A program made the position numbers and the translations under genes. The notes under the pieces were generated by a model. That model was not told where the DNA came from. It did not search any database and saw nothing but the letters and a program-made list of their open reading frames with translations. Source: Gnetum montanum (Eukaryota > Plantae > Gnetophyta). From it: a DNA stretch of 64,000 bases. Location: positions 254,221-318,220 of the forward strand of contig MNCI01002984.1 of assembly GCA_015680685.1 (NCBI GenBank), in the 5' to 3' direction. Of the stretch, positions 5,375-55,316 are shown piece by piece. Each line of letters starts with the position of its first letter. Positions within the stretch are counted from its first letter, which is position 1.

Positions 5375-5545
5375 AATAGCCATGTTGGAGGGATGACATC
5401 CACGCTGAGGGTAGGTGAGTTGCACTCCCATGCATCCATGTTGGGGGTAGATGAGTTACATCCCCATGCATCCTTATTGGGGGTAGGTGATTTACACCCC
5501 CATGCATCCTCACTGGGGGTAGGTGAGTTACACTCATGTGCATGT
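5375..5545. repeat. 33-bp tandem repeat, ~5 copies
   Basis: GGGGGTAGGTGAGTTACACYCCCATGCATCC recurring every 33 nt. Confidence 0.9.
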
Positions 5546-23139: not shown

Positions 23140-26100
23140 ACAGTATGATTTTTCTTGTTGAATATTAACAAGAATAAGTTTTGTGTAGTTATTTGGTGAT
23201 ATATTTGCATGGTGGCTAATTGGTATGTAGTATGGATGGTATAAGGTCCCTCTCATAAATTTTGAAACTTAGTATTTTGTGAGACATGATTGGGATTATA
23301 GTAAAGGACTTTATTACCAAGCTTGATAGATACTTTTCTTATTTTAGCGTCATGTCTACATTTGGGGTACTTTTTGTGGACTTTATTACTTATCTAAGCT
23401 ACCAATTGATTTTCATATAAGATATTGAGATTCATTAGACATTTTCTTTGAGCTAAGCTTAAGTCTAGGTCAAGAGTATTACCAGTGAAAAGGGTATTTA
23501 GTTCTACTTGTATTGGAAAGGCAAGTAATTTATCATAAGCTAGTTCATATGGTGAATATCCTATATGAAGTTGCTAGGTTGATCTATATGCCCACATAGC
23601 ATAAATAAGTTTAGTGCACTAGTCCTTCCTATAATGACCAATGGTTCTAGTTAATATTCTTGCGATTTCCCTATTAGTCACTTTTACTTGATCATTTGCT
23701 TAGGGGTGATAAGGTATAGTTGGTTTGTGATTAACCCCAAGTTGTTGCATTAGCTTCCTAAATGTAGCTTTTTTGAAGTGAGTCTTGTTATCCAGTATGA
23801 GTATGTATGGTACTTTGAATCTATTCTTCACATGTTGCTAAAAAAAATTGGTAGTTGTTTTAGCTGTACAATCTTTCACTCCAGTTTCTTCTACCTACTT
23901 TATGCAATAATCAATAATTACTATAATTGACATTGACGTGATGCGACCTATGAAATCAATTTGTTACATGTCAAAGGGTTCTAATGATTGTATTCATTGA
24001 TGTGACACTTTAATTCTAGCTATCAGTCATCCATATTGTTGGCATTTTCACAAGACTGTGTAAATTGATGTGTATCCCTAAATATGGTAGGCCAAAATTA
24101 ATCTATCATCAATAGTTTTAGTGTTGTTCTTTGTCCTACGTAGTGATCACCACATGGTCCCTCATGTGCATCTTGTAGGATTCTTTGTTGAATTTTCTCT
24201 AGAACACACCATCTTATCAACCCATCAGCACATATCTTGTAAAGGTTTCCATTAATTTTCATATATCTTTTTACTTTGTGGAGGAACCATTCCTTATGTT
24301 TCTTATTCCATTTAATAGGAAGTTCTTGTTTAGTAAGATATGTTATGCAATTAGTAGTCCATGACTTATGTTCTGAGTCTATAGCCATTATAGGCTTAGT
24401 GAATAAATTTTCATTGAGAAATTGGTCTAATATTTGTTCATCATTTTTCTAAGGTTCCTATCTTAGCCTTGATAAATTATTTGTTGCAACATTTTCATTT
24501 CCTTTCTTATCAATCATTGTAATGTCAAATTCTTGTAAGATAATGAGTCATCTTATTACTCTAGGACTAATTGCTAGTTTATTCATTTAAAATTTGATGG
24601 CACTATTATCAGTATGGACATAGATAGGATAAGTGAGCACATAGTATCTAAATTTCTCAAGTACATACACCATAGTCATGAGTTTCTTTTCTATGATGGT
24701 ATAATTAATTTGTGCTAGGTGATGCTTCAACTAGGGCAATGTATATAATAAGGTCTTTTTTAATCATTAAGTTTAGTTAGTTTTAATCCTAATTCCTAGT
24801 GTGAAGCATCTATCATAATGTACAAAGGATTGGATCAATCTAGAGGTCAAAGGATTTATGTCTCAATTAGTTTCTATTTTAAGGTTTTAAATGTTTTCTT
24901 ACATTGGTGCATCTTTCTTAGTTAATTCCACTAGAAATTTTGTAATCTTTTAAAAATTTTCAATAAATCTCCTATAATATCTTGTAGCGAAGGAATGATC
25001 AGACATCTTTGAAAGTTTGTGGTGTCTAGGTGATATTTTGAATGACTCTGATCTTTTCTAGATCTACTTCTATTCGTTTATGAGATACTTTATGCCCTAG
25101 AACTATACCATCTTAAACCATTAGGTAGCCTTTTTGTCAATTGAGCTTTAGATTAGTTTTTACACATCTTTTTAAAACTTACTCTAAAAATCTAGCCTGT
25201 ACATGGAAAATTCATTCATAAAAACTTCAAATCCATTGTCAATCTACTTCTAAAAGATACTTAGTACAAGTCTTTGGAAGGTAGCAAGAGCATTTCACAA
25301 GCCAAAGGGCATTTTCTTGTATGTAATCATCCTCTATGGATTGGTGAACATGGTCTCGTTTTTTTAATCTTATGATGCAATGTAGATTTGGTTATACCTA
25401 CTATATATATCCAGGAAGCTATAGCACTAGTGTCTTGCAATGGTGCTTAGGACTTTGTCAAAAAATGATAGAGGAAAATGATCCTTGAATGTTACCACAT
25501 TCAACAATCAGAAATCAAGGTAGACCCTCCACTTGCCACCTTTCTTTGAAACAATGACTAATGAACTAACCCATTCACTATTTGGTATGGACTAGATGAA
25601 CCCAGCTTTTAATAATTTTTCCAACTCTTGTTTGAAAACTTATTTAATTTTAAGGTTCAATCTTCTTTGATGTTGGCAATGTGATTTAACGGATGGATTT
25701 GTATAGATTTGGTGTTGATATATGTGTGGATTAATACAAGTGATTTTGTGATAGGACTATGCAAATGCAGTAGGCCATTTATTCACCACTTCCAATAGTT
25801 TTCTTTTCTTCTCTTTATCATGTTTTGCATTTATGATTATCAATTTTTTTATTATTCAGGAAATCATACTCAAGTGCATTTAGTAGGACCTTCAGTTCAA
25901 TGGGTTCTAGTTTGTACTTCTCTAGTATCTCTAACTTTTCCTATTCAATATCTTCATCCTAATGTGATTCCATGTAAGGAGGTTGTCTTCTTAACTATTC
26001 TAACTCATCAATTTCTTTGACATAGGAACTAGTGATTTTATTCAATGATTCTATGCATGTATTAGATTCTACTTCTTTTTTAGTGATCAGTCAATGGGTG

Positions 26101-26978: not shown

Positions 26979-27488
26979 TGTGACATCCCGTTCCTAGATG
27001 TCGTAAAAATATAAACGCTTAATTTATTAAATTCACCATTTTCTTAGATATTATATCGAAAACATTATAAATACTTAAATAATGAATTAACTAGTAAATA
27101 AATAATTGGTACTAAAGAATTAAGCAAAGAAAATGGAAAGTTATATTAATGGAAAAGAGTATTGTAACACCCTTTTGGGTTGTCTTCTTATGCCACTTAA
27201 GCCTTAGAGGCAATCCAACATTGCCACCATGATTAGGCTTTCTTGACAAAGGGGTGATCAGTCCCTTTTTGTCCCACTTCACCCAACTCCTATTACTTGC
27301 CTCTTTAGGCTCTAACCTCGACCTTAAATGGCATAGGTCAAACCCCAACCTTAAATGACATAGGTCAAACCCTTTTCTAAGGGATACACGAATAATTGTA
27401 ACCCCTCATAACAAGGTGCCTCTTCATTAGAAGGTTAATTACATTGTTTACAATTGTTTCCATCCTTAACAAGGGATGGAACATTACA
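26979..27488 (-). repeat. 3' LTR of A1
   Basis: TGTGACA...CATTACA; followed on + by TTTACCACCCCTTAAG (PPT complement). Confidence 0.92.
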
Positions 27489-27505
27489 ATTTACCACCCC
27501 TTAAG
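27489..27505 (-). other. Polypurine tract of A1
   Basis: Minus strand CTTAAGGGGTGGTAAAT adjacent to the LTR. Confidence 0.75.
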
Positions 27506-27689: not shown

Positions 27690-30600
27690 ATCAAAAATTT
27701 GGGGGTAAGTATTTAAATAAACTCCCTATTTTCCTAAGTCTTTTAATCACAATTTGACCATTGAACAAGTACTTCACTAATAGTTTTATTTCAAAATTTC
27801 TTGGTTTGTTGATTCTTAAGAGCAATGGGTTTAACTTCAAAGCTATCATTGGATCATAATGGCAAAGTATTTCATTTTCATGAAATTTCTTTAGCAAGCT
27901 CACATGCAAAACTAGATGAATTTTTAAGGTTTCTAGAAGATTCAACCGATATGCTACTTCACTAATTCTTTTAGAGGTTTCAAAAGGTCCACAAAATATA
28001 GGTGCTAATTTAGTATATTTTCCCAATTTAAGAGAACTTCTGGTAGGTTTTACTCTTAGTAATACTGATCACCTACTTGGAATTCTTTTTTTAAGTCAAG
28101 GTTGATTTTCATATCCTTTATATTTATCTTGGGTAGCTTGTAAATTTTGTTTAATCCTTGTGACAATGTTTTCCATTATTTTCATTTCTTCTTCCTTCCA
28201 TTCCACTCTTAAGGTTGGATCTACCTAGGTTAATGGTGTATGACAATTATGTCCATATACTACTTTGAATGGTGTTTGATGTATCAAACCTTAATAATTG
28301 TTATTATAGGAAAATTCTGCCAAACGTAAATAATTCTCCCACGTTTTTGGTCTACTCCCAACATAGCTTCTAATATTCTATTCACACATTCAATTTGTCC
28401 ATTAGTCTTAGGGTGATAAGCTGTGCTAAATTTCAATTGGGTTCCAATATCTTTGAAGAATTTTTTCCAGAATTTAGATATGAACTTGGTATCTCTATTC
28501 AAAGTGATAGATTTTGGACAATCATGTAATCGAAATATTTTTCATATGAATTTTTGAGCTATTTTCTTCTACTGTGTTTGTAGATTTCAAAGCTATAAAA
28601 TGTTCCATTTTTGATAGATGATCAACTACGAAGAAAATTAAGTCATTTCCTTTATTGGTTACTAGCAATCCCACAATGAAATCCATAGTGATATCTTCCC
28701 ATTTCTAGGTTGGAATTTCTAGAGGTTGTAGTAATCCACTAGGTTTCCTCTATTTAGCTTTTATTCTTTGACATGTTGGAAAATTTTTAATGTATGTGGA
28801 TACATCATTCTTCATTCCAGGCCAAAAATAAGATTTGTGAATGATCATATAGGTCTTAATATAACCTAGGTGTCCTGTGTATGGTACTTCATGTGCTTCA
28901 CACAACAACCTTAGTCTCCAATTTCCTTCTGGTATGCATACTCTTTGTCCTTTCATCAATAAACCATTAGAAGTAAGTTGATATTAAGGCTCATAGGAAA
29001 TATTGGTTAAAATATTTTTAAAGTAAGGATCTTATTTTATTTTTTCCTTAGTTTCTTCTTCCATAGGAGTTGTTACCACATCTATCATTAAATTCCACAT
29101 TCCACTAAGGGCATCAGCTACCACATTTTCTTGTCAGGAATATATTTGATTTCAAAATCATATTCTGCCAATAATTCTATCCATCATCTTTGACAAGTAT
29201 TTAAAATAGGTTGTCTTTGTAAATATTCTAGAATTTTATGATCTATTTTTAGTACAAACATTTTTTCACAAAGATAATGTCTCCAAACTTTCAAAGCTTG
29301 AACAACTGCCAGTAATTCTAAATCATGGGTTGAGTAATTTACCTCAACTACTTGTAATTTATAGGATTCATAACATACCACTTTATCTTCTTATGAAAGA
29401 ACTACATCGATTCCTATTCCATAGGCATTCGTGGATACTTCAAATGGTAGATCTTCATCCGAAATTCCCAAAATAGGTGTTGTTGTAAGTAACATATTTA
29501 ATCTAAGAAAAGATTCCCTACATTCTTCATCAAATTTGAACACACATTTCTCTTACAAAAGGTCACTTAATGGGGCTATTAAGGTAGAATAAGCTTTAAT
29601 GAAATGTTGATAAAAATCGCTAACCCTAAGAAACTGAAAACTGCTATAACATCTTTTAATTTAGGCCAATCCTAAATTGCACTAATTTTTGCTAGATCTA
29701 CTTGCAATCCTTTCTTGGAAACTATATGTTCTAAGTATGAAACTTCTTTCTTAAAGAGTTCACATTTACTCAATTTAGCTTTTAATTGATGTTCTTTAAA
29801 AATTTCCATTGTAGTTTTTAAATATTTGATGTGTGCTTCTCTTAATTTGAATAAACAAGTATATGATTCATAAATACTATAATAAATTAATCAAGATATT
29901 CATGAAAAATATTATTCATTAATGTCATAAATGTTGTAGGTGCGTTAGTTAATCCAAATGGCATCACAAAAAATTTGTATAATCCATATCTGGTTCTAAA
30001 AGCCATTTTCTCAATATCTTTCTCCTTAATCCTTATTTGGTAATAACCTAATTTTAAATCAATCTTTGAGAAATAACATGCACCTGTAAGTTGGTGAAAT
30101 AAATCATCAATTCTAGGTAAAGGATAAGTATTTTTAATCATCACTTTATTCAATGCTATATAATTGATGCATAATCTTAGTATACCATCTTTCTTTTAAA
30201 TAAATAAAACTAATGCACCCCAAGGTGATACGCTAGGTCTAATTTTCCTTTTTTCCAATAATTGGTCTAGTTGTACTTTTAATTCTCTTAATTCTAAAGT
30301 AGAAAATTATAAGGAGATTTTGAGATAGGTTGTGTACTAGGAAAAATATTAATGGCATGCTCAACTGTTCTTTTTGGAGGTAGTTCTCTAATTTCACCAA
30401 ATATTGAATCTTTATATTCCTTAAGTTCATTTGGGATCTCAACACTTGAAAATTTCTAAGGTTGGGTTACTTTAACAACCAACGTTGTAGCACCTTTTTG
30501 ACTAATCTTTTAGCTTGCTTAATTGCTTAATAATTATCGTATGAATTTTTTTTGTTGTTCCTACCCCCCTTAGAACCCTAACTTCATTAGTGGTTGGGAC

Positions 30601-32000
30601 TTTTAAAATGCAAGTTCCAAAGTGGACAATAACATCAATTTTTTTTGCAGGAAAAACATTCCTAAAATTGCATCAACATCACCTAGTTCAAATTCAAAAA
30701 ATTCATCAATGAACGACATGTTTTGCAAGGTAAAGTTAATTTTTCCATACTTGATATGTTTGCTCATAGTTGTTCCATCTACTAGTTCTATCTTAATAAT
30801 TTTCTTGGAAGGTAGACTTAATTTCAATAAATTAATTAACTTTGGAGAAATAAAGTTATCACTAGCACCACTATCAATCAAAAATTTAAATTTTTTACCT
30901 TCAATTGAACCTTTAAAAATTAGTAAAGCAAATTGAAATTCACGCAAACTTGATTTAGTTGATGTAGATATCTTCTTCATGGCTATGGTAGTAGCTGGAA
31001 TTTTTCCTTTGTTCATGTTTGGGTTTGGTTTTTGATTTCTAATTTGATTGGTCCTTTGTATTTTTGCTCAAAATTTTGGGCAATTTTGTTTAAAATGATC
31101 TTCACCATAAAAGAAACATCCAGATCCTAATCGAGCTTTTTTTTATTGGTGTCTCCTCTACCATTGCTTGTGGAAAACTGATTTGTCAAAGAGTTGCTTG
31201 TTGAAGGGTCACTCATATCTAATTTGATTCCTCATAATCCTTAGCAATTATATATGCTTCATCAATAGTTTGAGGGTTATGGGCTCGTATTTAGGGACGT
31301 AATTAAGCATGTAGTCCTCCAACGAATTTTGAAGCTAATTTTCCCTAATTCCTTGTAGTAATCATCTACAGATTGTCTTCCCAACCTTGAGATCTCAGTC
31401 CATTCCACCATGTTGCTACAAGTCCTCTTAAATACAAGGAGATAACTCCTAAATTTTCATGACTTGACAAATTTAACATATTGAATTAATTTTTCATTAT
31501 ATCAAGCCAATCCTTTACCTTAGCACTAGACCCAAGGACTCCAACATAATGATCTAATCTTATTTTCTTAGCATGAACTTGTGTCAATGATTCTCTAGGT
31601 GGATTAAGCTAGTTCCCATATCCTTCACCTTCAGTTTCAGTTCTATGGTCTACAAGATGGATTTCAGTATCCTATCCACCTGGTGGGGGTTGTGTTTGTT
31701 GTGAATTCCTAGTGGGAGGTTGATCTTAATGTTGTTCTCTAGGTAGACTATGGGTAGGATTAGAAGGTTGAATAAGATGGTTGGTTAGTTACTTGATGGA
31801 GTCTACAAAGAAATCCATCTTTTCTTGCACATTTGACCATTTATCTTTTGAACTTTGGGACAATTTCTTAATTTCCATAGACATATTTTGCATCTTTGTT
31901 CTGAACCCTTGGTTTGAGTGACAAAGTTCTTCATGACACCCTTGATCTCATTAATTTGATCTTCAAGGGCATTCATCTGATCATTGAATTGGTCTTCCAT
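27690..32000 (-). pseudogene. A1 gag-pol with C-terminal chromodomain, frameshifted
   Basis: Zn knuckle GCFFYGEDHFKQNCP (~31080-31122); FLIDSGASDNFIS; [26 protein letters not shown]; NYSTHDLELLAVVQALKVWRHYL; HEVPYTGHLG..YFWPGMK; STAYHPKTNGQ; GPF; KF*NKTISEVLVQW (~27755-27800). Confidence 0.95.
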
Positions 32001-32350
32001 TTCTCTCTAGTTTATTCTTTGGGTTTCAAACATCAGTAAGTTGAAGAAATCAAGTATGCTGATAGTTCTTAGCCTTTATGGCCCTTTTTATGAGATTCAA
32101 AATTGTTTAGTCAGTTGTGGAAGAAGTTGAAATTGTTATGGATTTCTCACCAAGTACTTAATCCTAATTATTTTTGGGACCTAAAATAATGAATTACATG
32201 CTAATTTTCTGTAATTCAAAATCTAAATTTAATCATTCTATTGAGTTTTGAAGATTCAAATTTGTTGAAATTAATTTTTGTTTAGTTGAAAACAGACTCT
32301 AAATGCAAAAATTATAGTCGTTTTAAGTTTTCTCAACTTTCACATATTTC

Positions 32351-32417
32351 AAGACTTCTCGAGAGGTCATCCATCCCAGTTCTACTCTAGGACATGCATG
32401 CTTAACGACAAAATTTT
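32351..32417 (-). promoter_or_regulatory. 5S rRNA-derived internal control region (box A-IE-box C) in the A1 leader
   Basis: Minus strand GTTAAGCATGCATGTCCTAGAGTAGAACTGGGATGGATGACCTCTCGAGAAGTCTT versus plant 5S GTTAAGCGTGCTTGGGCGAGAGTAGTACTAGGATGGGTGACCTCCTGGGAAGTCCT (recalled consensus); about 44/56 ungapped by eye. Confidence 0.85.
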
Positions 32418-32619
32418 TATTTTTGTTGCTACCATTGCACCAATTTGAATTTTTGTAAATAATTGTGTGTTTTCTATTTAAACTAAAACTAATGAGCAGA
32501 AAAAAAATTTGGAAAATTTTCGTCAGTTGACAAGAATTTCAAAATTTCAATAAATTATTAAAAAATTTTAATTTTTCTGTCAATTGATGGATGACCCATT
32601 CCATGGTCTACATGGTGGC

Positions 32620-33180
32620 CAGAAGGTAGTGATGGATAGTGTAGGAGGCAATGATGGACAATGCAGGAGATAGTGATGGACAATGCAAGAGGCAATGATC
32701 GGTGGCTCAGGAGGCAATGATGGACGGCACAAGAGACAGTGATGGGCAGCTCAGGAGGTAGTGATGAACAACAAAGGAGGCAGTGATGGGTGGTCAAGAG
32801 AAGGCAATGATGGTAGTGAAAAGAAGGCAGTGATGGCATCCGTGGTTGTAGGCAAGGTGCAATTGTAGGTGGTGCATAGTTGTAGGCAATGGCAGTGCTA
32901 CACAATGCAGGCGATGCATGGCTGTGTGGTGGTAGCAGGGGTGCAAGAGATTACAATGGCAATGGGGAAAAATAGCAATGACACAAGTTTTTCTTGTGCC
33001 TTGTTTTGGGGGCTGGCCCCCCAAGGGCTAGACTTATAGGCCATGGCCTTGTAGCTAGCTGGTTGCAGCCTGGCCATAGCCTTATTGCAATTGTACCATG
33101 GCTGGTCATAGGCTTTGCCACAACCTTATTGCAATTGTGCTATGGTTGGTCGTAGGCTTTGCCATAGCCTGGTCCCAGGC
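32620..33180. repeat. GC-richer degenerate short tandem repeats in the A1 leader
   Basis: Recurrent GGAGGCAATGATGG / GACAGTGATGG and GCCTTATTGCAATTGT units. Confidence 0.7.
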
Positions 33181-33259: not shown

Positions 33260-33679
33260 TAAATAAGCAATCAGGGCTCAGGTTTGAACTCAAGACCCCT
33301 TAAATTTTTTTTTTATTAATTTTTTTAATTAAAATAATATATATATATATACACATAATTTTTAATTTTAAACTACACATAAACCAAGAATGATTGTATC
33401 TTCCAAAACGTAAGTCAGATTTTGATAGAATTGGTACTGTTGGAATCGTCCCAGAGAGTACTTCGTGTTAAATTGCAAATAACTCTGCTTTAGTACGTCT
33501 AAAAATCATAAAATCCAAAAAAGTGAACATTAGCTTTTAAAACAAAAAGTAAACGTAGCTTTTTCTTTTAAAAAAATATATGTTAACTTTTATTAAATCT
33601 TTTGTTATCTTAAGTTATACTTTCTCTTTTTTTTTACTAAGATTTCTATGATTATATTATAAATATAAGAAGTAGGATG

Positions 33680-35039
33680 ATTTACTTATTACAACTTAAT
33701 ACCATCAAAAGATTGTCAACAAAGAAACTTGAAGATTTTCTATTATAAAGAATTTATCACTCCCAAATATCAAGCTTCACCTCAGGCCCCTTTAGGTAGC
33801 AGCTCTTTGTTGCCTAATATTTTTTTTACACCAAAATAATGTCCTTACTACTTCTAATGGGGTTTGTAGCTTACTTAAGGAGGGTTTTAAGTACCTTACC
33901 ATTTCTAGGTTAGTTGATTTACTAGTTTTTCCAATTTTTAAACTTTCCCAATTCAAGAGTATTTTTGTGGAGTGGTCTAAGTAGTATGATAATAAGAAAA
34001 GTTCTATTTTTTAATTAGTTTTTGGAGTAGTAATAATCTTTTCTCTTGATATTAAAGTGATCTTACTTTTTTAGTCAGGAGAGGATCCTTTAACTTATTC
34101 TCAACAATTTAAATCTTTTTATAAGAAGGAATTATCCAATTATGTACTAATTCTGCCATTAGCAAAAAACAATTTGTTTGTAAAGATTTCATTAACAATG
34201 CTCATTTTGACTTATGTCTATTCATCAATAGTAAGGTTCTATGGTATAAATAGTAATTCAATGTTAGTTCTTATTCTATTTTCATACTTTATGATGCCAT
34301 AACTAGTAGAGTTTATGATTGCTTAATGTCTTATTTCTATGCTTGGTATACTACTATGATTGAAATTACTATTGCCCAACAAAATCCTTCCAAATCCTAT
34401 ACCCTATGTTATATACCTTTGATCATGTGTATGATCCTAAGTTATAATCATCTCAAGAAGCATTTTACTTGTTACAATCCTTGGTTGTGCCCTAAATTTC
34501 TTGAAGATGAGAGGGTTATAAAGAGCAAGATTATGGGTGCCAAGAAAGGTCAACTTGCTTTATAGTAAGCTTGAAGTCAGGAGAAAATCAATGAGGTATT
34601 TTCATGTTTTTATTATTTCCTTATTTGTTGATTATGTTTTTTATTTTATGTCTTTGACAATGCAATTTGTGCTACAAAATGAACCAACATAAAGTGCTTA
34701 GGCTACATAGGTTGAAGAAATTTAAGGTACATCGACCTTTGGTATGGTTTAATCTTAAGAAAAAATCACATTTTTTGCTCCCAAGGTATATATTTAAATA
34801 TAATTTACTTAGTTTAATTTTTCATCTATATTTTTATATTTTTTTTATTTTTCTAATAAGTTTCATTTTGCAAAAGCAACGTATTGGGCAAAGTTCTAGT
34901 GATCCAGTAGTTATGAGACAACCAACCCAACAACAAGCTCAACAACAATTCCAACAAACTCGAGGTAAGTTTTTAGTTATTTAAAGGTTAAAATACTTCC
35001 CTTTTTCTTTTGTATGATGATTTTTAATTTGATGTTTCT

Positions 35040-35070
<31 letters not shown>

Positions 35071-35889
35071 GTTGTAGAGGTCTATGGAGAAAAAGTATTT
35101 TATCCGAGAGATGAATAGAGCTGATGCAGGTGCTACTTTTGCACAAACTCCTATTCCACCACTGATACCTTTTTTTCTTTGACACCTAAAAGAGGTTCCT
35201 TTCCACAGGTAGCACCAACAACAATTTCTAAATCTATTTATGTGATTTCTTCTTTCTCTATCTTTGGTTCTTCTTATTATATAGGAAAGATACAACAAAT
35301 ATCTGATAACAAACCATATTCTATTTGTGAGGATGTTTATCATCTATGGGAGTCGCATTCATGCAATTTTAAGGTAGATTATGATTTAGTAGAAGCTGAA
35401 CTTCCATAATCTTGGCATCCAATTCCTGAGGATGCTCCAAATATTGTAAAAAATTTGGAGCAACTCTTAGGAGAGTTGGAAAGTGCAACATGTTATGCTT
35501 GCCATTTGGATACTCATGCATGTTTCCTTTAAATTGACAATGATTGATTTTAGGTAATATATATATATATATAACTTTTCTCTCTCCTATTTTTCTTTTT
35601 TTTGTTGATTTGCTCATAACTCATAATTTAAATTTTATTTCTACAGAGAAAAGAGGAGGAATGGCAAAAGGACATGGATGATTGATCAATACAAATGGAT
35701 ATGTTGAAGACTCGACTTCAAAGAAAAGAGGAATCAATAGCTGCAGCAACCCGTGTGATCGAATATATCAAACAGTTATGTGATGGATTGATTGGATGTA
35801 AAGCAATGCTTAGTAAAGAAAATGCTACTACTAAAGAAAGAGAATCCCAAGTTATAGATCTTCTTGAATCATTTGGTCATAACAAATAA
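33680..35889 (+). pseudogene. Antisense, intron-containing accessory gene of chromovirus A1 (unknown protein, coiled-coil C-terminus)
   Basis: Donors after 34595, 34785, 34964; acceptors at 34660, 34873, 35077, 35646; exons conserved at protein level with 52500-54634 (SRLxxLLVFPIF; KNLxxLLGxLESAT; LCDGLIGCxA). Start not resolved. Confidence 0.75.
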
Positions 35890-36110
35890 TTATAGTTGCG
35901 TTTTCTTTATTTTCCCATTCTACTTCTTTCCCCTATTTTTCCTTTTTTATATCTTACTTAGATGTACTTCCTCTCACTCCTCTTGATTACAAAATAATAA
36001 AATAATATTTTCCTCCATATTTTTATTTTACCTAAATTTACTTGTGTTCTATGATAACACTAATAATAAAATAGGGTTTTTCTTCCACTTTGGTTCCTGA
36101 ATCGTTTTCA

Positions 36111-36122
36111 GCTCTGATACCA
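36111..36122 (-). other. Primer binding site, tRNA-iMet (A1)
   Basis: Minus strand TGGTATCAGAGC, 2 nt from the LTR end. Confidence 0.95.
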
Positions 36123-36124
36123 AA

Positions 36125-36574
36125 TGTGACATCCTGTTCTCAGATGTCATAAAAATATGAATGCTTAATTTATTACATTCACCATTTTGTTAGATATTAT
36201 ACTGGAAACATTATAAATACGTAAATAATGAATTAACAAGAAAATAAATAATTGTTACTGAAGAATTAAGCTAGGAAAATGCAAAAATTATATTAATGGA
36301 AAAGAGTACTATAACACCCTTTTGGGTTATCTTCCTATGCCACTTAAGCCTTAAAGGCAATCCTACACTACCACCATAGTTAGGCTATCCTGCCAAATGG
36401 GTGATCAGTCCCTTTTTGTTCCACTTCACTTAGATCTCGTTACTTGCCTCTCTAAGCTCTGCAACTCCATGCCTAGCACAACCTCTAGCCCCAACCTTAA
36501 ATGGCATAGGTCAAACCCTTTCCTAAGGGATACATGAATAATTGTAACCCCTCATAATGAGGTGCCCCTTCATT
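36125..36574 (-). repeat. 5' LTR of A1, outer ~60 bp deleted
   Basis: Aligns to 26979-27428 then breaks off into B1 gag; no TSD recoverable. Confidence 0.9.
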
Positions 36575-38944: not shown

Positions 38945-39630
38945 TGATGAGTGGTTAGGTATTTCAACACTTAACCATACAAGTCATGAGTGTACATGTG
39001 TAACCTTATCGTAATCCATGGATGGACAATGTAAGTATGCTAGTGGTTGATGTTAGGTTCAAGATTGTTATCTTCTCATGTTGAGTTAGCAAAGCACAAG
39101 TGTATAATTTAACTATCGGTGAGGCATACGATATGTTGATGTTATTTGGCTTTAATTTTTCTAAGTGCCAACATAATGAAAGTGAAGATAAAATCTAAGT
39201 CTAAGTATGATAAGAAATATAAATCTAATCTAGTCTATGATGGTAAGTATTTATTCCTAGCTTGTTGTACATGTCAAGGGCTCATGTAACCATCACTGTG
39301 ATTACCAAGTGAATCCACTATTAAGCAAATCAAGTGAACTCACTAATTGATTATACTTCATGCTTAAAATCAGTTGTCTTATAACAGCTTAATAAAAGAT
39401 ATTGAAAATGTATAATGTACCTAAAAAATGTAAATGACTTAACAAAAGTAAACATGCTGAAAGGTAAAATTAAGCTAAGTAAAAATGAGCTAAGTGGAAT
39501 GTTGCAATGATGAGAAATGATCTCGATCTTTATTTTAGGTCATAAGTTGTATCTAAGAACAATCCACTCGAACAAAGGTTCCATACAATTTTTAAATATC
39601 ATACTATGAGCATTCACTCTATCGCTAAGT
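38945..39630 (-). repeat. 5' LTR of B1, truncated
   Basis: Starts TGATGAG on +; aligns with 19072-19720; breaks into RT sequence at ~39630. Confidence 0.85.
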
Positions 39631-42600
39631 CCTCCATAGACTCATGAATATTGTTTTGGCATAATCCTCTAGCTCAATTTGGATTTTTTTATAGCCACTA
39701 TAACCATCCAGAAAATTGCAATTGCATTGTCTATAAATGGTATCTAACACTTGATTCATAAATGGCAATGCAAAGTGATATTTGAATGTTGCCATATTCA
39801 ATAGCTGGAAGTCAATGCAAACTTTCCACTTGCCATCTTTCGTTGGCACAATCATGAGTGGGCTAACCCACTCACTATCTACAATCAGATAGATAAACCC
39901 CACCTTGAGGAGTTATTTGATTTCCTTTTTGATGATCTACTTCAATTTGGGGTTCAATCGTTGCTACAACTATCTCTTTGGCTTCATGGCTAGATTAGTG
40001 TAGATATGATGCTAGCATATCCTAAGATCAATCCTTGTGAGTTTGGGATATGACCAAGAAAAAGTTGTTGGCCATCTATTAACCACATTCAACAGCATCT
40101 CCTTTTGTTTAGGAGCAATATCTACATTTATTATTACTGACTTTTCATTTTTTAAGAATGCATATTCCATGCCAATAGGTAGAGTTTTCAACTCAAGGGG
40201 CTCTTATTTAAATTTTTTTGGAATTTTGAACTCTCCTCAATTAGTATCATTAACTTCATTAATGGAGAGTTGGTGATGAACTTGCTTTAGTTTATCCATG
40301 CCTTCCAGGTAGGCACATGTTAAGCTCTCAATAGGTTCCATGCAAATTGCTAAGTTGCTTCCAAGATCAACTGTCAGCCACTGGGTGCCCTTATTTTTTA
40401 TGGCTATTGTGTATAGGCACCATTAAATTTCAGATATGTTAGCACACTAACTACTTGCATTGATATATACACTATTAATGGCCCATAGTTTCTACATAGA
40501 GTTGCACCCTATATCATTGTATGTAATGCATGGAACTTTCTTCCGTTTAATCTTCTAGAATGCATTTTCTTTAGAGATTTCAAGGGAAAGATATCATATC
40601 CCCAATTGTGCATCAACAGTGCTTAGCCAAGTCCTTCCCATGATGATTGGGAAGTTCCCCTTGCAATTGTCCACTGGGATCACTAGGAAATCAACTGGGT
40701 AGGACCACCCACAAATGGTGGTTACAATATCCTCCATAGTCCCAAGGAAATAGTGATGGATTGATCAGCCAACTCAAGACAGATGTTGCCCTTCTTGATG
40801 GAGGTAGGTTCCAAGCTTTATACATCTCATGGAAGATCAAATTAACACTAGAAATTGAATCCATAAGAATTTTTCAAGGCTTATTCCTAGAAATTTAAAG
40901 GTGAATAAGAGGACTTCCAGGATTAGATAGTTTCCTAGGAAGATGGCCAAATTTTATCCAATCAATTACCACATGGGTTAACATGATGATATGCACTTTG
41001 GAAGGTGTTTGGTTTGAAGGGGACTTGAATGGATTAGATGCAGATGAAAATGGAGAAGGAGGTTTGCCAGTTGCAGGTGTATGTGAGGGTTTAGTTGGGC
41101 TATTGGTTCAAAAAAAAAGGCCCTTTTCGTAATCTAGTTTTTGAACCACTCAGCTAAGGAGCTAGCTATCAGTTAACAACCCTTGTTGTGTTGCATTGCT
41201 ATGACTAAGATATCATTTCTTCCTACATTGATGAAGTAGGTGGTAACTGAGTTAAGGGTGGAGAGACATATTTAGAAGCATGAGGAGGGTAATATGGACA
41301 TGGGGTTTTCCCTCTAGTAGATGTAGAATGAGTTCTATAATACTCTAGAGGGTAGTAGTGATGTTGGAAGGTGGCGTGATTGAAAGAGTAACATGGAGAA
41401 ATGGGTTGCTAAACATGGTATCCATATGGATCTGGTTGTTGGTAAGGGTACTGCTACCTTGGTGGTGGCATCCCTCACAATTGTGGGTGCTACCACTATT
41501 AGTACTGCTCATGCGATTATGGTGGAGCTTTACTTGGATAGTAGGTTTGTTGTTGGTGGAACTGCCTAGGATTGCCTTGAGGATAAGGCAATCTTCTAGG
41601 TGCTTGCCTTCTTACCACTCTAAGATTCAGAGTGCACACCCTAGACTCCTACAAGTGTGACATGATAGGGCAACATCCTTTAGGATATTTGTATTAGTAG
41701 ATGTAACACCCATCATCATCATCTAATTCTACCTCCACAACTTCTTCTACTACAGCAACTTTGCACTTACCCCTATGGTAGGCACATTCAACTTCTCTTC
41801 ACCTTTTACGCTCATGATCACTACTCTACTTCCTTAATTCTTCTACAATTTTTAGAGTATTTTGGAATTTTTCATCCAAAAAATCCCACATTTTATCTAC
41901 CTTGGCTGAAATTTTAAACATAGATTTTTGGATTGATAAGGTCATTCTGTTTACCACCTCATCAAGTGGTGACTTCTTCTCACTATCACAAAAGTGGGCC
42001 TTCCTCTTTCTGATGGAAGGGTCCTTATTATATTCTTCTACACTTTCTCATTTTCTTAACTCACCTTCTTCTTTTGCTACCTACTTAATCAACCTTTGAA
42101 TTTGATGGACTCTTAGTTTTGATAATCGCCCTTGGGCATAGACTCCAAGAGTTCTCCTCATTTTTTATTGGATCCCATATATGATATGGTAAAGTTTTTC
42201 CTATTGAAAATAACCATGGCTAGGACATCTATGTAATAGAGAATAATATCAGCCCATGGCTATGTCCAAGGGTTCATGCATCCCTTGTTTCCATCATTAG
42301 ATCTAGTTCCTCAAGTTAGATATTTGGAAGTACATATAATATTTATCATTAAATAGTTTGAGCATTATACTCCTCAAGTTCTAGGGACCAATACCAACTC
42401 TCTACTTCCTTAATGAGTATCCTTGGGAATAGCTTAAGATTTTTCCAATCATTCTCCACATTTTTCAAGGCACATGCATTGTGAAAGACCTAAAGATGAT
42501 TTTGTGGATCTATGTTATATCCCCCTTCAAACTTGGGATTATTGTTCATGTCTAGCCTCTTGATTCTACTATCCTTTATGTGCCTTGTAGGAATTCTCAT

Positions 42601-47476: not shown

Positions 47477-50400
47477 GTTCAAGATGGGCTATCTCTGTAA
47501 ATATTCTAGGCTTTTATAATATGTTTTTAAAACAAATATTTTTATATAAAGATAATATTTTTAAATATTTAAAGCATGAAAAATTATCAGTAATTCTAGA
47601 TCATGGGTTAATTAATTTACCTCAACTCCTTGTAATTTGTGAGACTCAAAACATACCACTTTATCTTCCTGTGAAAGAACTACACCAATTCCTACTCCAC
47701 ATGCATCCATAGATACTTCAAATGATATTTCTTCATCCTTAATTCTCAAAAGAGGTGTTGTTTTTAGTAGCATCTTTAATCTAAGGAAAGCTTCCCTACA
47801 TTTTTCATCAAATTTAAACACATGTTTTTATTGTAAGAGGTTAATCAAGGGGGCTACCAAAGTAGAATAATCTTTAATGAAACATTGATAAAAACCTCTT
47901 AAGCCCAAGAAACTATGAACTGCTATAGCATCTTTAAGTTCTGACCAATCACAAACTATGCTAACTTTAGCTTGGTCTACTTATAGTCCTTGCTTAGATA
48001 TAATATGGTCCAAGTATGATACTTCTTATTTAAAAAGTTCACATTTCTTAATTTTACCTTTAATTGATATTCCTTCAGGATTTTCAATGTAGTTTTTAAT
48101 TATTTAACATGTTCTTCTATTGACATAGAGTAAACAAGCATATCATCCATAAGTATGATAACAAATTGATCAAGTTACTCTTGAAAGATATTATTCATTA
48201 ATGCCATGAATGTTACAAGTGCATTAGTATATCCAAATGGCATTACTACGTACTCATATAAACTGTACCTAGTTCTAAATATAGTTTTCTCAATGTCTTT
48301 CTCTTTAATTCTTGTTTGGTGATATCCTGTTTTTAAATTGATCTTAGAAAAGTTGGTCAAATAATTCATCAATCCTAGGCAAGGGCTAGGTGTTTTTAAT
48401 CATTACTTTGTTTAACACCCTATAATCAATGTATAACCTTAATGTACTATCTTTTTTTTAACAAATAAAACTAGTGCATCCCAAGGTGAGATACTTGGTT
48501 GAATTTTTTCTTTTTCTAATAATTGGTCTAATTGTACTTTTAATTTCCTTAAGTCTAATTTGGAAAGCCTATAAGAGGCTTTTGAAACTAGTAATGTAGT
48601 GGGAAAAATGTCGATGGCGTGTTCAACAATTCTTTCTAGAGGTAATTCCCTAGTTTCACCAAATACTAAATCCTTATATTCTTCAAGTTCTTTTGGATTC
48701 TCAATGTCAAAGGATCTCTAAGATTGAGTTACTTTTACAACTAACATAAGAGTATCTTTCCTTACTAGTCTCTTAGCTTTCTTAATAGTTATCATGTGAA
48801 TTTGCTTTGTTGTTCCTACTCTCCTTAAAATCCTAACTCTATTAGTGGTTAGCACTTTTAAAAGACAAGTTCCAAAATGGAAAATAATATCAAATTTTTG
48901 TAGAAAAGACATTTCTAAGATTTCATCAACATCTTCTAATTCAAATTCAAAGAATTCATCAACAAATGGCATGTCTTGTAGAATAAAAGTAATATCTCTG
49001 TACCTGGTGTGCTTGCTTACTATTGTTCCATCTACAAGTTTTATTCTAATAACTCTCTTGGAAGGTAAGGTTAAAATTAATAGCTTAACTAAAGTTAGTA
49101 AAATAAAATTATCACTTACTCCACTATCAATCAAAAATTTAATCTTTTAACCCTTAATTAATCCTTCAAAAATCAATAGAACAAATTGAAATTTTCTCAA
49201 ACATAACTTTGTAGATGGTGAAATCTTCTTTATTGTTGCTATAGTAGTGATTTTAATCTCTTCTTTGGCCATATTTACATGGGGTTTTTGATTTTTATTC
49301 TGATTGCTACTTTGTATTCTTGCTTGTAATTTTTAGTAAACTCACTTGAAATGATCTTCATTGCAAGCGAAACATCTAGATCAAGTTCTCTTGGTAGGTG
49401 TGTATTCTACCATTACTTGTCGAATGGTAGTGCATACTTGATTTGATTCCTCATAATCCTTAGCAATTTTATATGCTTAATTAACTATCTGGGGATCATG
49501 TGCACATCTGAGAATACAATTATGCATGTAGTCCATCAATGAACTTTGCAACTAGCTCCTCGTCATTTTGGTGGCTTACATACTGAGAGAGATCATAGAA
49601 TTCCTTGTAATAATCTTCAATGAATCATACACCTAATCTCAATGAGTCAGATTGCATCTTACACTTTTTGAAAAAGGAATTTGGTATAAATCTTTGTTCA
49701 AAGTCTCAAAAAAAGTTTATCCAATTTGAAATCAATCTTTGATCTCAATCTATTCCACCATGTTGTAGAAAGACCTCTCAGATACAGGGAAACTACTTCT
49801 AAGCGATCTTAGCTTTTTAAGTTCAACATATCAAAATAATTCTTCATGGTATCAGGCCAATCTTTTTCTTTAGCACTAGATCCAAGGGCTCCATCATAAT
49901 AGTCTAATTTTACCTTTTGGCATGTACCTGGATTAATGATTCTTGGTGAATTTTATCAATTCGAATAACCCTCACCTTTAAGTTTCACTCTTTGGCCTTA
50001 TGAAGGGATCTTGGCATCCTAACATCCAATAGGTTGGAAAAATCTCTATATTGATCCCTAGGGGAAATTTGATCTTAATTCTGGTCTCAATGATGTTGGG
50101 ATTAATCCCTAGGTGGAAATTGATTTTGATGATGATCTCTAGATGAATAATAATTTTGGTTGGAAGGGTAGGTTAAGTGATCAATTAACAGTTTTATGGA
50201 ATCTACGAAGGATTCCATCTTTCCTTGTACTTATAACCATTTCTCTTCTAAACTTTGGAACAATTTCCTAATTTCTTTAGACATGTTTTGCATATCTATC
50301 CCAAACCTTTAGTTTGATTAATGGAGTTCCTCTTGGACATCTCTAATTTCATTAACCTATTGTCCAAGGACATCTATTTGATCATTAACTCAAGACTTCA
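47476..50400 (-). pseudogene. A2 gag-protease-RT-RNase H, decayed
   Basis: LIDSGVSDNFI; [15 protein letters not shown]; YEYVVMPFG; ILMDDMLVYS; VSMDACGVGIGVVLSQE. Confidence 0.93.
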
Positions 50401-50654
50401 TTGTTCTCCAAAGTACTCTCTAGGCTTTGAACATTAGTAATTTGAAGAGACAAGGCAGGTTGGTCATTCCTCGGCCCCTGTCATCCTTTTTATGGATTAT
50501 GTGATCATTAATTAATCCTAAAAGAGGTTAGATTATCATGAACTAATTTTCTCTTCTTGAACTCTCAACCAACCACAAAAGACTAATTATTTCATTTATT
50601 AGGTTTTCTACATAACTTCTACATGTCTTAAAAGTCTACATAACATCTTTAAAA

Positions 50655-50980
50655 ACAAATTTTTTCATCTCACATAGGCCCAATCTAACCATTTCATTAT
50701 GTCTAGAAGATTCAAATCTATTGGAAACAATTCTTGTTTCATTGAAAATGGACTCCAAAAACTAATTTTTTTCATTTTACATAGGCTAAATTAGACCATT
50801 AAATTATGTTTGAAAGGTTTAAGTTTGTTAGAAACGGTTCTTGTTTAATGGACTTCAAAAACTAATTTTTTCCATCTTACATAGGCTAAATCGAATCATT
50901 CCATTATGTTTGGAAGGTTTAAATCTATTGGAAATAGTTATTATTTCATTAAAAATCAACTCTAAAATTACAATTTATGG
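50655..50980. repeat. ~100-bp tandem triplication in the A2 leader
   Basis: ACATAGGC...CATTATGT.T.GAAG.TT.AA.T..TT.GAAA three times; single related copy in A1 (~32205-32310). Confidence 0.8.
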
Positions 50981-51013
50981 TCATTTGAAGTTTCAAAAAT
51001 TTACATGTTTCTC

Positions 51014-51080
51014 AAGACTTCTTGAGAGATCATCCATTCCATTACTGCTCTAGAGTGAGCATGCTTAATTACAAAATTTT
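51014..51080 (-). promoter_or_regulatory. 5S rRNA-derived internal control region in the A2 leader
   Basis: AAGACTTCTTGAGAGATCATCCATTCCATTACTGCTCTAGAGTGAGCATGCTTAA, orthologous to 32351-32406. Confidence 0.75.
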
Positions 51081-51221
51081 TATCCAACTTGTTACCAAGG
51101 CATCAAATTCCTTTTTGTAAAAATATTTTCTGATTTTCCTATTTGAATTTTACCATTAACAAAAACTTTTCAGTTGGTCATCTTGCTAAGATGGTAGGTT
51201 AATGATGTTGGTGGTGCTTGT

Positions 51222-51492
51222 CAAAGCACCATGGGAGGCTAGCTTTCACAATGTTCATAGAGTGCCATGGAAAGCTACTTTCCATGGTGTCCATGGAGCA
51301 CTAGAGTAGGTTGCCTTTGATGATGTCTATGGAGCACCGTGGGAAACTACCTTCCATGGTGCCTACGAAGCACCATGGGAGGCTATCTTCCACAATGTCT
51401 ACAAAGCACTGAAGGAGGTTACCTTTTGCATTCATGAAGCACCATGGAAGGCTACCTGTAATGATGTCCCCCATGCCCGTTGGACACTATGC
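51222..51492. repeat. ~35-bp palindromic tandem repeat, 7-8 copies
   Basis: GCACCATGG(G)AAGGCTACCTTCCATGGTG units. Confidence 0.85.
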
Positions 51493-52499
51493 ACTACTAA
51501 AATTTCTAGTGACTTTCACAATAGTAGTGTAGGCAACAATGATAGTACAAGTAATAGCGGTGGTAAAAACAACGGTAGCATTGTAGACAATGCTTGCAAC
51601 ACAAACAATGATGAAGGTGCAGACAATGGCAATGGCACAAACAATGATAGCAGTGATGGTAGTAAGCAACAGTGGTGGTGAAGGCACGCAGTGCAATGAA
51701 AAAGGTGAGAGAGGATGTTAGTGGATTTTGCAGTGAGTGTTTGTGCAACACGACGCAAAGGCACAACATGACAGAAGACAATAGTGAACAACACGCAAGA
51801 GTGGCGAGGGTTCTTTCTACAATAGCATAGTAGGCAGTAGCTAATTTGGCATTAATGAGGTGTGACAGTGTGGATGGTGTAGGTAGGAAAATAGTAGGCG
51901 TAGAATGGCAAGAGCTAGTAGGGTCTACTAATGCTATGCACTAGCTTGCTACAACACCCTGTAGTGCTTCATTATCATGGTGGGCTATCATGACACCTCA
52001 CAATGAGGCTATGATGTCATGTCACATGGTGGTACGATGGTCCATCTTGCCACCATGCATGGCCTTGCTAGGGCCTATGTAGTCCTCCTCGGGGCCCACA
52101 CAACCTAGGCTAGCCTGTGTGGCCTACTTTTTTTTAATTCATATTTTTGGGTTAGGGTTTGAACCTGCAAATCCCTTGGCACATTGCTTTATATATATAT
52201 ACCTTTTTGAATTTAAAATTTTAATTTTGATAAATAGAATGAAAACCAATAAATGTTGTATCACCTAAATTGTAAGTAAGATTTCGATGAACTTAGTATC
52301 ATTGAAATCGTCTTGAAGAGCAACATGTTCAACTCAACATAATGTTAGTTTACTTGACCTATCAACCAAAAAATCAATAACAATGGACTTCAGTTAAGTG
52401 TTAATTAATAATTAACCACATGTTAACCTAAATTGTACTTCACTTTTCTTGAATGAACTACACCTTTAACCATTACTAGTGTTCTTGATTTTCCTTATA

Positions 52500-54634
52500 A
52501 ATTTATGGAAACTAGGTCTTTTTGCTCAAATTATCTATTCTTACATTGTAGCTGTAGAGAGATTTCTTCATAGCAAGTTGCAAGATTGCTCCTCCAAGGT
52601 GCCTTGGTCAAGCCTCTCTTGCTTTTCTTGCTCCCTTAAGTACCTCTACATCTATTTTTATTGATTTTCTTTAGAATAATGTGGTTTAGGCTACCAACAC
52701 AATTTGTATTTTACTAGATGTTACTAGTTTTAAGTATCTCTATACTTCTAGGTTATTGGAGTTATTGGTTTTTCCAATTTTTAACATTGTTAAATGTAAG
52801 GATCTCATAAGAGATATGTGCAATGTTTACCATCTCTAGAAATTTCTATTTCTATAATGGTTTATGGAAGTCTAGTGATTATTCTTGATGTTATACGAAC
52901 TACTTTGTGATCTCATGCTAGAGAGGATCAATTTGAACATAGTATGAAATCAGTGAAGTTTAAGGATTTTTATGAAAATGAAATGTTTGTGTATCTTTCT
53001 TATTTCACTCTTGTGTAGAAGGAATTTTAACAAGTTGATTTTAATGATTTTATCATTTTTCAAATATGTTAATTTATACATAGTAAGGTCTTGTGGAATT
53101 TTTCTTCTTCCCATGTTAGTTCCTATGCTATCTATCTTCTTCATGGTGTAAAAACTAATAGAGTGTTTGATTGGTCACTTTCTTGTTTGTCTACCTTATT
53201 TCTTGCCATGGAGCTTACACCGACTACTGAAAAAATCCCAAAAAATATTATACCATCTACTATGTATCCCTACTTATGACCTTGATCTTAATTTATAATC
53301 CTACAACTAATAATCTTGACCATTTTAATCCTAATCTACATCTAGAGTTCTTTGAGGAAAATATAATTGTGAAAAATTAGGTTAAAGATGTCAAAAAGGT
53401 TCAAAGAGCTCTCATACAAGTTCATAATATAGAGGGAATTGATGAGGTATAAATTTTGATTTATCTTGTTAATATTTTTCTTATTTATTAATTATTTGTT
53501 TTTATGGTATTTATGTGATAGTACACTCTAGGCTACAAACTAAACTAGCAAAAGGTACTACAAAGACAAATCTTGGAGATGATGATGTGACAACTATAAA
53601 ACTAAGTTCTAAGGTTTAACCTTAATCATATAGTATTATTATTATTGTTTATTTATTTATTTTATTTCTATTTTCTATTTTTTATTAGAAACAACAGATA
53701 GAACAAAGTTCAAGCTAAAAATTTTTGAGTAAGAAAAAAGAAAAGGGAAAAGAGCTAGAGGTAACTTGATTAATAGATAGAAAATACATGGATTTAGAAT
53801 ACTTTCCTTTTTTCTCATTCTTATGTTATGCCACTTTTGTGCAAGTGTACATGGATTAAGAATACTTCATTCAGGAATTGGAGAAGGATTCTTCACACAA
53901 ATCTAGTTTTGAATAGACTCCAATCCCACCTCCAAGATCTTCTAGCATGTCATCTCAATGTGTAACTATAGTAAAGGATTTCTTATGACAGGCCATGCCA
54001 ATGTCCTCCATTCCTAGATCTATTAGCATAATGCCATCTATTACCATCATGGGTCTACCTTTCTCCTTAGGATAGATAGTGGTTGCTGCGAAAGAAAAAC
54101 TTCTTTTTCTTTGAAAGTTTGGTGATTGGATTACAAATAATACTCTCTATTCTATATATGAGGAGTTATATTAATTAAGGGGGTTCAATTATTATGACTT
54201 CAAGGATGATTACAAGTTGGTGCAGGTTGGTGTTGCTTCTACTTTTCATGCTATCCTTGAGGGTATTTTAAAGATCAGCAAAAATCTTTAAAAACTCTTA
54301 GGGCAACTAGAGAGTGCCACTTTCTTGGCTTGATACTTGTTTTTATCATTATCATTTTATACTTATAGCCTTGATCTTACAAAGAAAGGAGAAGGAATGG
54401 TAAGAAGACATGGCAGAATGGACCCTTCAAGTCAATCTATTGGAATCTAAACTTGCAAAGGTTGGTAAGGCACAAGCTGCAACAAAAAGTACTACCAAAT
54501 ATATTTGGAAATTGTGTGATGGTTTGATTGGATGCCAAGCTATAATTAATAAGGATGATGCTACCAAGGATGAATGCAAGGCCCAATCTAGAGCTATCAT
54601 AGATCTCCTCAAAGTCTTTAAACTGGATGATTGA
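52500..54634 (+). pseudogene. Antisense, intron-containing accessory gene of chromovirus A2
   Basis: Donors after 53446, 53613, 53760; acceptors at 53521, 53688, 53844, 54382; last exon ...YIWKLCDGLIGCQAIINKDDATKDE...IIDLLKVF. Confidence 0.75.
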
Positions 54635-54802: not shown

Positions 54803-54814
54803 GCTTTTATACCA
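54803..54814 (-). other. Decayed tRNA-iMet PBS (A2)
   Basis: TGGTATAAAAGC versus TGGTATCAGAGC. Confidence 0.8.
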
Positions 54815-54816
54815 AA

Positions 54817-55316
54817 TGTGATAACCCATTCTTAGATGTCAATGAAACACAATCATTCATTATGTAAAATCATCACTTTGCATGAGACTAACTTGATTGC
54901 TCATTCAACTTGGAAAAGTAATGATGAATAAACATGGATTTAAGACAAAAATTAAAACAATGGAAACTTTATTAATGAAAGGGTAGTACACTATAACATC
55001 CTCTGGGTTATCTTTCAATGATACTTAGACCTTAGAGGCAACTCAGCACTACCATCATGATTAGACTATCTAGCTGAAGGAGTGATTAGTCGCTTCTTAT
55101 CCCACTTTATTCAGCTCTCATCACTTACCAATCTTGTCTCCACAACTTCATGTTGATATGATCTATAAGCCTAGACTTAAATGCCATAGGTCAAATCTAT
55201 TCCTGAGGGGTACCATGAATAGTTGCAACTCCTTATAATAAGGCATCCCTTCTTTTGAAGGCTAATTACATAATTAATAGTATAATTCCATCCTTAACAA
55301 GGGACAAGATGTTACA
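54817..55316 (-). repeat. 5' LTR of A2
   Basis: TGTGATA...TGTTACA, homologous to 26979-27488. Confidence 0.88.

Follow-up and report, generated by a model that had tools for sequence, protein, structure and literature searches.

A decayed third gene, antisense to gag-pol and probably spliced, in the leader of a Ty3/Gypsy element of Gnetum

Two copies of a Ty3/Gypsy LTR element, A1 and A2, carry the remains of a third gene between their primer binding site (PBS) and gag, on the strand opposite to gag-pol. Its coding strand, its frame and the purifying selection that it underwent in the past can all be read from the differences between the two copies. Judged from these differences, the region is almost certainly a protein-coding gene and probably a spliced one. 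The explanation that we favour, with somewhat better than even confidence, is a decayed antisense gene that was selected as a protein while the element was active, likely split into five exons, with a nuclear helper acting in trans as its likely product.

In the window, i.e. the whole stretch of 64,000 nucleotides that was analysed, decayed plant LTR elements are nested in one another; the GC content is 28-42%. A1 lies on the - strand, is about 9.7 kb long and has a leader of about 4.1 kb from the PBS to gag. A2 is a second, more broken copy whose gag-pol is 75% identical to that of A1. Their parts are the following:

26979..27488, - strand: A1 3' LTR, 510 bp, TG...CA (A1 LTR comparison)
27489-27502: A1 purine tract, just inside the 3' LTR
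27690..32000, - strand: A1 gag-pol, comprising gag, protease, reverse transcriptase (RT), RNase H, integrase and a chromodomain-like tail (Pfam matches; tblastn collinear with protein P0111)
36111..36122, - strand: A1 PBS, Met-type (sequence)
36125..36574, - strand: A1 5' LTR, 85% identical to 26979-27428
47478..50450, - strand: A2 gag-pol, ending after RNase H, with gag from about 50450 (comparison with A1)
54803-54814, - strand: A2 PBS, decayed (sequence)
54817-55316, - strand: A2 5' LTR (LTR comparison)

The A1 PBS presumably corresponds to a tRNA of the initiator-Met type. The outer 60 nt or so of the A1 5' LTR were removed by the insertion of another element at 36574; this missing end is present in other copies, which continue past 36574 as loose ends in DNA run X2. 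The A1 gag-pol contains numerous stops and frameshifts. The A1 LTR pair shows a K2P divergence of 0.156 (447 columns), which makes A1 an old copy.

With its TG...CA LTRs, PBS, purine tract and the order protease, RT, RNase H, integrase, the element belongs to Ty3/Gypsy. Its A1 RT is 72% identical to that of the chromodomain-bearing P0111. The closest seed-plant RTs are 68-73% identical and algal RTs 56-63%, while the other Gypsy RT of the window is far removed. The A1 segment 27752-27844 is collinear with the tail at the C-terminus of P0111, a protein bearing PF00385 (32% identity over 31 aa); a Pfam search with this decayed chromodomain-like piece itself gave no match. Assignment of the family to the chromoviruses on these sequence comparisons is well supported. 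In an RT tree of 32 rows (30 of 120 matches picked by organism, plus 2 rows from the window), whose references carry no lineage labels, A1 falls among seed-plant RTs without starred support. The Met-type PBS and the size of about 9.7 kb fit the ranges of the Tekay clade (5.6-20.7 kb, extra ORFs allowed), to which the sequence features suggest that the family likely belongs.

A first-pass annotation of this DNA had proposed that in both copies a segment of about 4 kb between PBS and gag holds an antisense coding region. The region was confirmed, on the + strand and opposite to gag-pol, and the exon peptide pairs quoted in its favour are the best + strand tblastx matches between A1 and A2. In a DNA alignment made blind to frame, a + frame scores best in 11 of the 13 ungapped blocks of the antisense region, and a - frame in 14 of the 16 gag-pol blocks. 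The proposed past purifying selection is also borne out. A pairwise codon model (A1 versus A2; 310 codons in 7 blocks, in the proposed frames) gives a dN/dS of 0.33 (p = 2.5e-10 against 1). These 7 of the 13 blocks lie inside exons 1, 4 and 5; blocks falling in exons 2-3, in the low-complexity middle of exon 4 and in the 3' flank were set aside, as was a stop-rich block of exon 1. Taken separately, exon 1 reaches 0.40 (p = 2e-4), exon 4 0.16 (p = 1e-6, two blocks) and exon 5 0.47 (p = 0.03). For comparison, dN/dS is 0.26 in pol, 0.37 in gag and 0.81-1.31 in non-coding controls across all six frames. The other five frames of the antisense region range from 0.64 to 2.28, the lowest being that of the opposite strand, a shadow also seen in pol (0.48) and gag (0.62).

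Since the frames had been chosen block by block, the null was repeated with the same best-of-six picking on 200 column shuffles. These gave a mean dN/dS of 0.74 and a minimum of 0.49, so that the observed value lies beneath every shuffle; in-frame stops number 16, against a mean of 48 and a minimum of 27 in the shuffles. Decay after insertion drives dN/dS towards 1, which makes 0.33 a conservative figure. Both antisense genes carry frameshifts and neither retains a continuous ORF. The two copies have diverged by 2.0 changes per codon in the antisense region (33833-35867) versus 0.95 in pol (29200-30979), with similar dN/dS. This doubled divergence may possibly reflect a module exchange between subfamilies.

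The segment is also common in the family, as the first-pass annotation had supposed, and it is plentiful in the DNA of relatives. In DNA run X2 the summed contig depth, which is not a copy number, is 784-6182 in 13 gene bins, averaging about 3000, and 5235-8357 over four gag bins, a single contig having a depth of about 4-9. Such depth identifies the gene as cargo of the family rather than a one-off insertion. Part of the DNA of the stretch is contained in 11 of the 23 listed runs, which carry five organism labels and come from four studies. Related loci were found neither in metagenome contigs, by protein or by LTR/PBS pattern, nor in viral contigs.

The gene model comprises five exons in A1 (about 1840 coding bases), with a less complete counterpart in A2:

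33677..34595, + strand: A1 exon 1, helical domain, frameshifted; start uncertain, candidate ATG at 33677 (dN/dS 0.40; ATG list)
34596..34677, + strand: A1 predicted intron 1, 82 nt (GAG/GT common to A2; frame arithmetic)
34678..34785, + strand: A1 predicted exon 2 with 5 stops, part of the low-complexity linker
34786..34873, + strand: A1 predicted intron 2, 88 nt, 59% T
34874..34964, + strand: A1 predicted exon 3, Gln-rich, 91 nt (72 nt in A2, with one frameshift between them)
34965..35077, + strand: A1 predicted intron 3, 113 nt, containing a TA microsatellite
35078..35553, + strand: A1 predicted exon 4, frameshifted (dN/dS 0.16)
35554..35646, + strand: A1 predicted intron 4, 93 nt, donor in A1 only
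35647..35889, + strand: A1 predicted exon 5, long helix, coiled-coil-like, with the terminal stop (dN/dS 0.47; AlphaFold2)
52505..54634, + strand: A2 antisense gene (exon 1 up to 53446; exon 2 53539-53613; exon 3 53689-53760; exon 4 from 53845; exon 5 54383-54634)

All 6 donors and all 8 acceptors named earlier read as described at their coordinates. Three donors are common to A1 and A2. All three are AG/GT and fall at homologous codon boundaries in a region where the copies are only about 60% identical; a shared G/GT occurs by chance at 2 of 1249 aligned background positions. A shared CAG, TAG or CAA is not rare (17 of the same 1249). The gaps between the blocks measure 75-113 nt, are composed of 43-63% T and 11-27% GC, and contain in-frame stops, while the exon blocks have 15-40% T and 29-42% GC. 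The statement that these gaps do not align went too far: they align in part, through the T-richness common to both copies.

The first acceptor had been placed at 34660/53521. This yields an exon 2 of 125 and 92 nt, out of frame in both copies. An alternative at 34677/53538, 17 nt downstream, yields 108 and 75 nt, stop-free in A2; it reads CAA in both copies, as further dead acceptors do, and is canonical in neither. On frame arithmetic the original acceptor was likely misplaced by these 17 nt. As a counterpoint, the 14 or so codons that follow it show agreement between the A1 and A2 proteins at 7 of 14 residues, which favours the original site but would then require a frameshift in both copies. 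For the fourth donor, not located earlier, a frame-compatible candidate is present at 35553 in A1, in frame with exon 5 and preceded by three stops in nine codons; the counterpart stretch is deleted in A2 (81-column gap). With acceptor 1 at 34677/53538 and the donor at 35553, all four introns become phase 0, and the A2 frame is kept across every junction between exon 1 and the beginning of exon 4. Canonical YAG acceptors number four of eight at the original sites and three of eight in the revised model. The suggestion that CAA acceptors result from methyl-C decay fits the composition of the window, where the observed/expected ratios are 0.44 for CAG, 1.48 for CAA and 0.13 for CG. CTG is depleted (0.37) like CAG, and TAA and TAG make up 21 of the 23 in-frame stops. 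Such CG and CAG/CTG depletion with CAA excess resembles the pattern of heavily CHG-methylated large plant genomes. Of the proposal of an element-encoded protein with about five exons, the five exon-like blocks and the selection stand, and the first acceptor, which breaks the frame, is likely misplaced.

The same gene could have been expressed unspliced, or spliced differently, as a single ORF or a pair (exon 1; exons 4-5), in which case the T-rich gaps would be low-complexity spacers or slippage tracts. This is the strongest of the alternatives and an improbable one. It would account for the non-canonical state of most acceptors, for the poor alignment of exons 2 and 3 (outside the dN/dS test) and for the ambiguous frame of exon 2, and it agrees with the absence of junction reads from three RNA runs that gave almost no coverage. 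Against it stand the three shared AG/GT at codon boundaries, gaps with the length and composition of plant introns and with in-frame stops, and the frame maintained in A2 from exon 1 into the start of exon 4. The RNA runs, from a species label that also contains the DNA, were sampled at 2%, 26% and 26%, respectively; no junction read appeared at a depth mostly below 1, which makes them uninformative on splicing. Near-absent RNA is compatible with a silenced family. Two RNA piles were discarded, one at 34813-34852 as poly-T artefacts and one at 35461-35494 as 34-nt partial matches to another transcript. Among the 15 DNA joints shown of 133 in run X2, none removes a proposed intron.

The predicted product of the spliced gene would be a protein of about 600 aa with a helical N-domain, a low-complexity linker and a long C-terminal helix. 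Exon 1 (about 300 codons) is conserved, largely helical and hydrophobic. Exons 2-3, together with exon 4 in its first half, form a Gln/Ser/Pro/Lys-rich linker that differs between A1 and A2. In exon 5, AlphaFold2 predicts a helix of 41 residues (17-57; mean pLDDT 87.6) with a 3-4 hydrophobic/heptad repeat. The model of the exon 1 N-domain is unusable (pLDDT 39.6), and its structure matches (generic helical, best Z 6.9) were rejected for this reason.

Searches for relatives of this protein were made with decayed queries, in databases that possibly do not include this plant group, which weakens their blanks. No homologue was found by Pfam with nine decayed pieces, by two word searches of protein sequences or by an HMM scan run in full against 1.84 billion representatives. 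Weak Pfam matches to SLED, Rop-like, Timeless and DltX (E 0.01-0.2) are far under the cut-offs and were rejected, as was the sole HMM match, P0001, a 14-fold repeat artefact. Apart from this artefact, none of 121 fetched proteins matched either profile. PDB sequences gave nothing under E 0.49. A stop-free A2 stretch of 68 aa had no named match in the ESM Atlas, the best scores (0.84) being to unnamed bacterial clusters. The second half or end of exon 1 seems to us to resemble the helical motif pattern of Transposase_32 (PF20167)/Athila ORF1, which we take as a lead only; PF20167 and PF03078 gave no Pfam match at E up to 1, a weak test with a decayed query.

A possible course of expression can be outlined. 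A promoter in the 1.6-kb spacer next to gag would fire away from gag, towards the 5' LTR, and the + strand transcript would end in the A/T-rich stretch ahead of the PBS, where AATAAA-like words lie at 35992-36062 and 54734. The four phase-0 introns would then be spliced out. These introns are present in the genomic RNA only as their reverse complement, so that the spliceosome leaves them in place and they pass through reverse transcription, a step that follows from established biology. The product might dimerise through its coiled coil and, as a guess, counter host silencing or steer expression. By analogy with Grande GENE23 and with the Tat extra ORFs that join a domain to a coiled coil, a nuclear protein that works in trans on the chromatin or transcription of its own family is plausible, and we hold this narrower proposal with slightly less than even confidence.

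The gene may instead be spliced and have another job, either through a product that serves in structure or transport (particle, RNA export, integration tether, membrane or env-like) or through an antisense RNA that pairs with the genomic RNA in its 5' part and is itself the main regulator. Exon 1 is indeed hydrophobic and env-like proteins also have coiled coils, but hydrophobicity is not a reliable trait in a copy that is AT-rich and deaminated. A sunflower Tekay group with a 5' additional ORF (aORF), group 2, is described as inserting in chromosome arms, unlike groups devoid of it (PMC11728184), and roles of double-stranded RNA are among the topics of PMC7264820. However, selection at the protein level means that the RNA cannot by itself explain everything, and the antisense products for which the latter review reports data are nuclear. 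We regard such functions as unlikely, slightly more so than unspliced expression. Least likely, if by little, is a captured passenger, i.e. a host or DNA-transposon gene with introns inserted backwards in a founder, its codon signal a leftover without any role in the element: plant-type introns suggest a genomic origin, the roughly twofold divergence relative to pol is as expected from two related captures or a module swap, and transduction and nested insertion are origins discussed in PMC7264820, but the selection was measured between two element copies with the gene at the identical place and strand, where neutral carriage since one capture should bring dN/dS close to 1, Pfam, the word searches and the HMM scan gave no host or transposase homologue, and the gene is still abundant in the family. 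Capture may nevertheless be how the gene that we consider an element gene originated.

The position of this gene is less novel than the first-pass annotation implied, since antisense extra ORFs upstream of gag are already present in REXdb. There, according to an additional file, 12% of 782 Tekay chromoviruses carry an antisense (eORF-5'R) and 33% a sense (eORF-5'F) extra ORF (PMC6317226 additional file 5). As described in that paper, single ORFs of at least 250 codons were counted by getorf (PMC6317226), and introns were thus not modelled. The 5' aORF of sunflower Tekay 13-2 is given as one ORF in sense (+) orientation, and those of sunflower and grass Tekay elements as having long helices and a predicted nuclear location (PMC11728184). 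The A1/A2 family shares with Tekay the chromovirus host, the Met PBS, the large element and additional coding sequence that lies between PBS and gag, in some members in antisense; as far as the Tekay 5' aORFs are described there, it also shares their long C-terminal helix and disordered tracts. It differs by its four predicted introns, a distinction drawn between descriptions rather than sequences.

Antisense aORFs are standard 3' of pol in Retand elements, to judge from parts of two papers (PMC11963269, PMC7264820). Passages of the second describe Grande GENE23 as nuclear with its own antisense promoter, and ORF2 of PvRetro13 as having an SMC-like domain (PMC7264820); Tat extra ORFs are reported in part of another source to combine a plant mobile domain (PMD) with a coiled coil (PMC4408406). 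Like the aORFs of Retand, Grande gene23 and RIRE2 (Transposase_28, SMC-like) and the PMD-coiled-coil extra ORFs of Ogre/TatIII, the present gene is an antisense accessory gene conserved like gag-pol, and the predicted outline of a globular domain with a coiled coil recalls Tat accessory proteins that join a PMD or Transposase_28 to a coiled coil. Unlike it, the Retand and Ogre aORFs belong to a non-chromovirus lineage and lie between pol and the 3' LTR. PF04195 and PF10536 (Transposase_28/plant mobile domain) had no Pfam match in the nine decayed pieces. The word 'intron' does not occur in the accessible text of the Retand survey (PMC11963269). Known examples of Transposase_32/Athila ORF1-like proteins, as presented in part of PMC11728184, are sense and 3' of pol. 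Another additional antisense gene of a Ty3/Gypsy element is brtn of Boty (BcGypsy1) in Botrytis cinerea, as a portion of PMC8365987 describes it; unlike the present gene, it is fungal and lies 3' of pol, as stated in a section of PMC7264820. In titles and the starts of abstracts, with subscription papers mostly outside this scope, no earlier description was found of a plant chromovirus in which a multi-intron antisense gene lies upstream of gag. The antisense position upstream of gag is therefore already known, and the version with four introns was not found in the literature searched.

The spacer between this gene and gag contains a further feature common to both copies:

32345..32444, - strand: A1 decayed 5S rRNA-like piece, internal control region (Rfam 5S, E 1.7, under the gathering score)
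51002..51108, - strand: A2 decayed 5S rRNA-like piece at the homologous place (Rfam 5S, E 1.9)
32560..33165: A1 tandem-repeat tract with units of 22-44 nt, between the 5S-like piece and the antisense gene

The 5S-like pieces lie about 350-600 nt upstream of gag (about 350 nt in A1), in the sense of gag. Each is under the Rfam threshold and appears in narrow scans only, the scan of the whole window having missed them. Their C-box matches the canonical Cassandra motif at 8 of 10 bases in A1 and 7 of 10 in A2. They are part of the best-conserved non-coding block (32231-32469/50894-51132), 71% identical between A1 and A2 and so above the antisense exons (about 60%). In run X2 the depth of the 5S-like bin is four times that of gag, with a contribution from true 5S genes. 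RNA reads match A1 at 32353-32390 and then continue into other sequence, which we take to be 5S. Just downstream of the 71% block, A2 has three copies of a 100-nt unit (50651-50954). A2 also has a tandem-repeat tract at 51224-51940 (units of 36-72 nt), in the same place as that of A1 but unrelated in sequence.

Cassandra TRIMs carry a 5S-like piece in the LTRs of a non-coding element and are said to be absent from gymnosperms (Cassandra preprint). The present pieces resemble theirs in spanning the control region over about 60-100 nt and differ in being internal, upstream of gag, in an element of autonomous type that codes for gag-pol. No earlier report of a 5S piece inside an autonomous element was found in titles and abstract starts, subscription papers being mostly beyond that search. 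A bolder and doubtful proposal is that this seed-plant chromovirus possesses a two-way leader cassette of 4 kb, in which a four-intron antisense gene of a family absent from databases and a co-opted 5S internal promoter ahead of gag would jointly control the element. For example, binding of TFIIIA/TFIIIC might maintain an open spacer that serves gag as well as the antisense gene, the latter supplying a self-encoded anti-silencing factor.

Surveys of plant LTR elements use ORF length, and multi-intron antisense genes are consequently invisible to them. A 2020 review calls, in one of its passages, for antisense and spliced transcripts to be examined (PMC7264820). The A1/A2 family is one actual example: selection on its antisense gene shows as strongly as on gag, and no relatives of its protein were found. 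Both copies are dead and the function is conjectural, which limits its present value. Anti-silencing activity of such proteins, if real, would help to explain the very high copy numbers that some families attain in heavily methylated plant genomes; if the two-way cassette is real, it would also mean that a class of multi-intron accessory genes in plant LTR elements has escaped surveys based on ORF length.

Other repeats surround A1 and A2 in the window. Two decayed copies at 23500-25800 and 39630-40990 have a different, non-chromovirus-like Gypsy RT/integrase. The segment 19072-21742 is repeated at 44567-47088 (78%). Tandem arrays at 6841-7631, 8156-9044 and 5397-5533 consist of 4-5 copies of units of 192, 183 and 36 nt, respectively, inside another repeat. 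Two adjoining copies of about 935 nt (56002-57870), 91% identical, form a tandem LTR-like pair, which is followed by a zinc-knuckle gag-like ORF (58893-59294).
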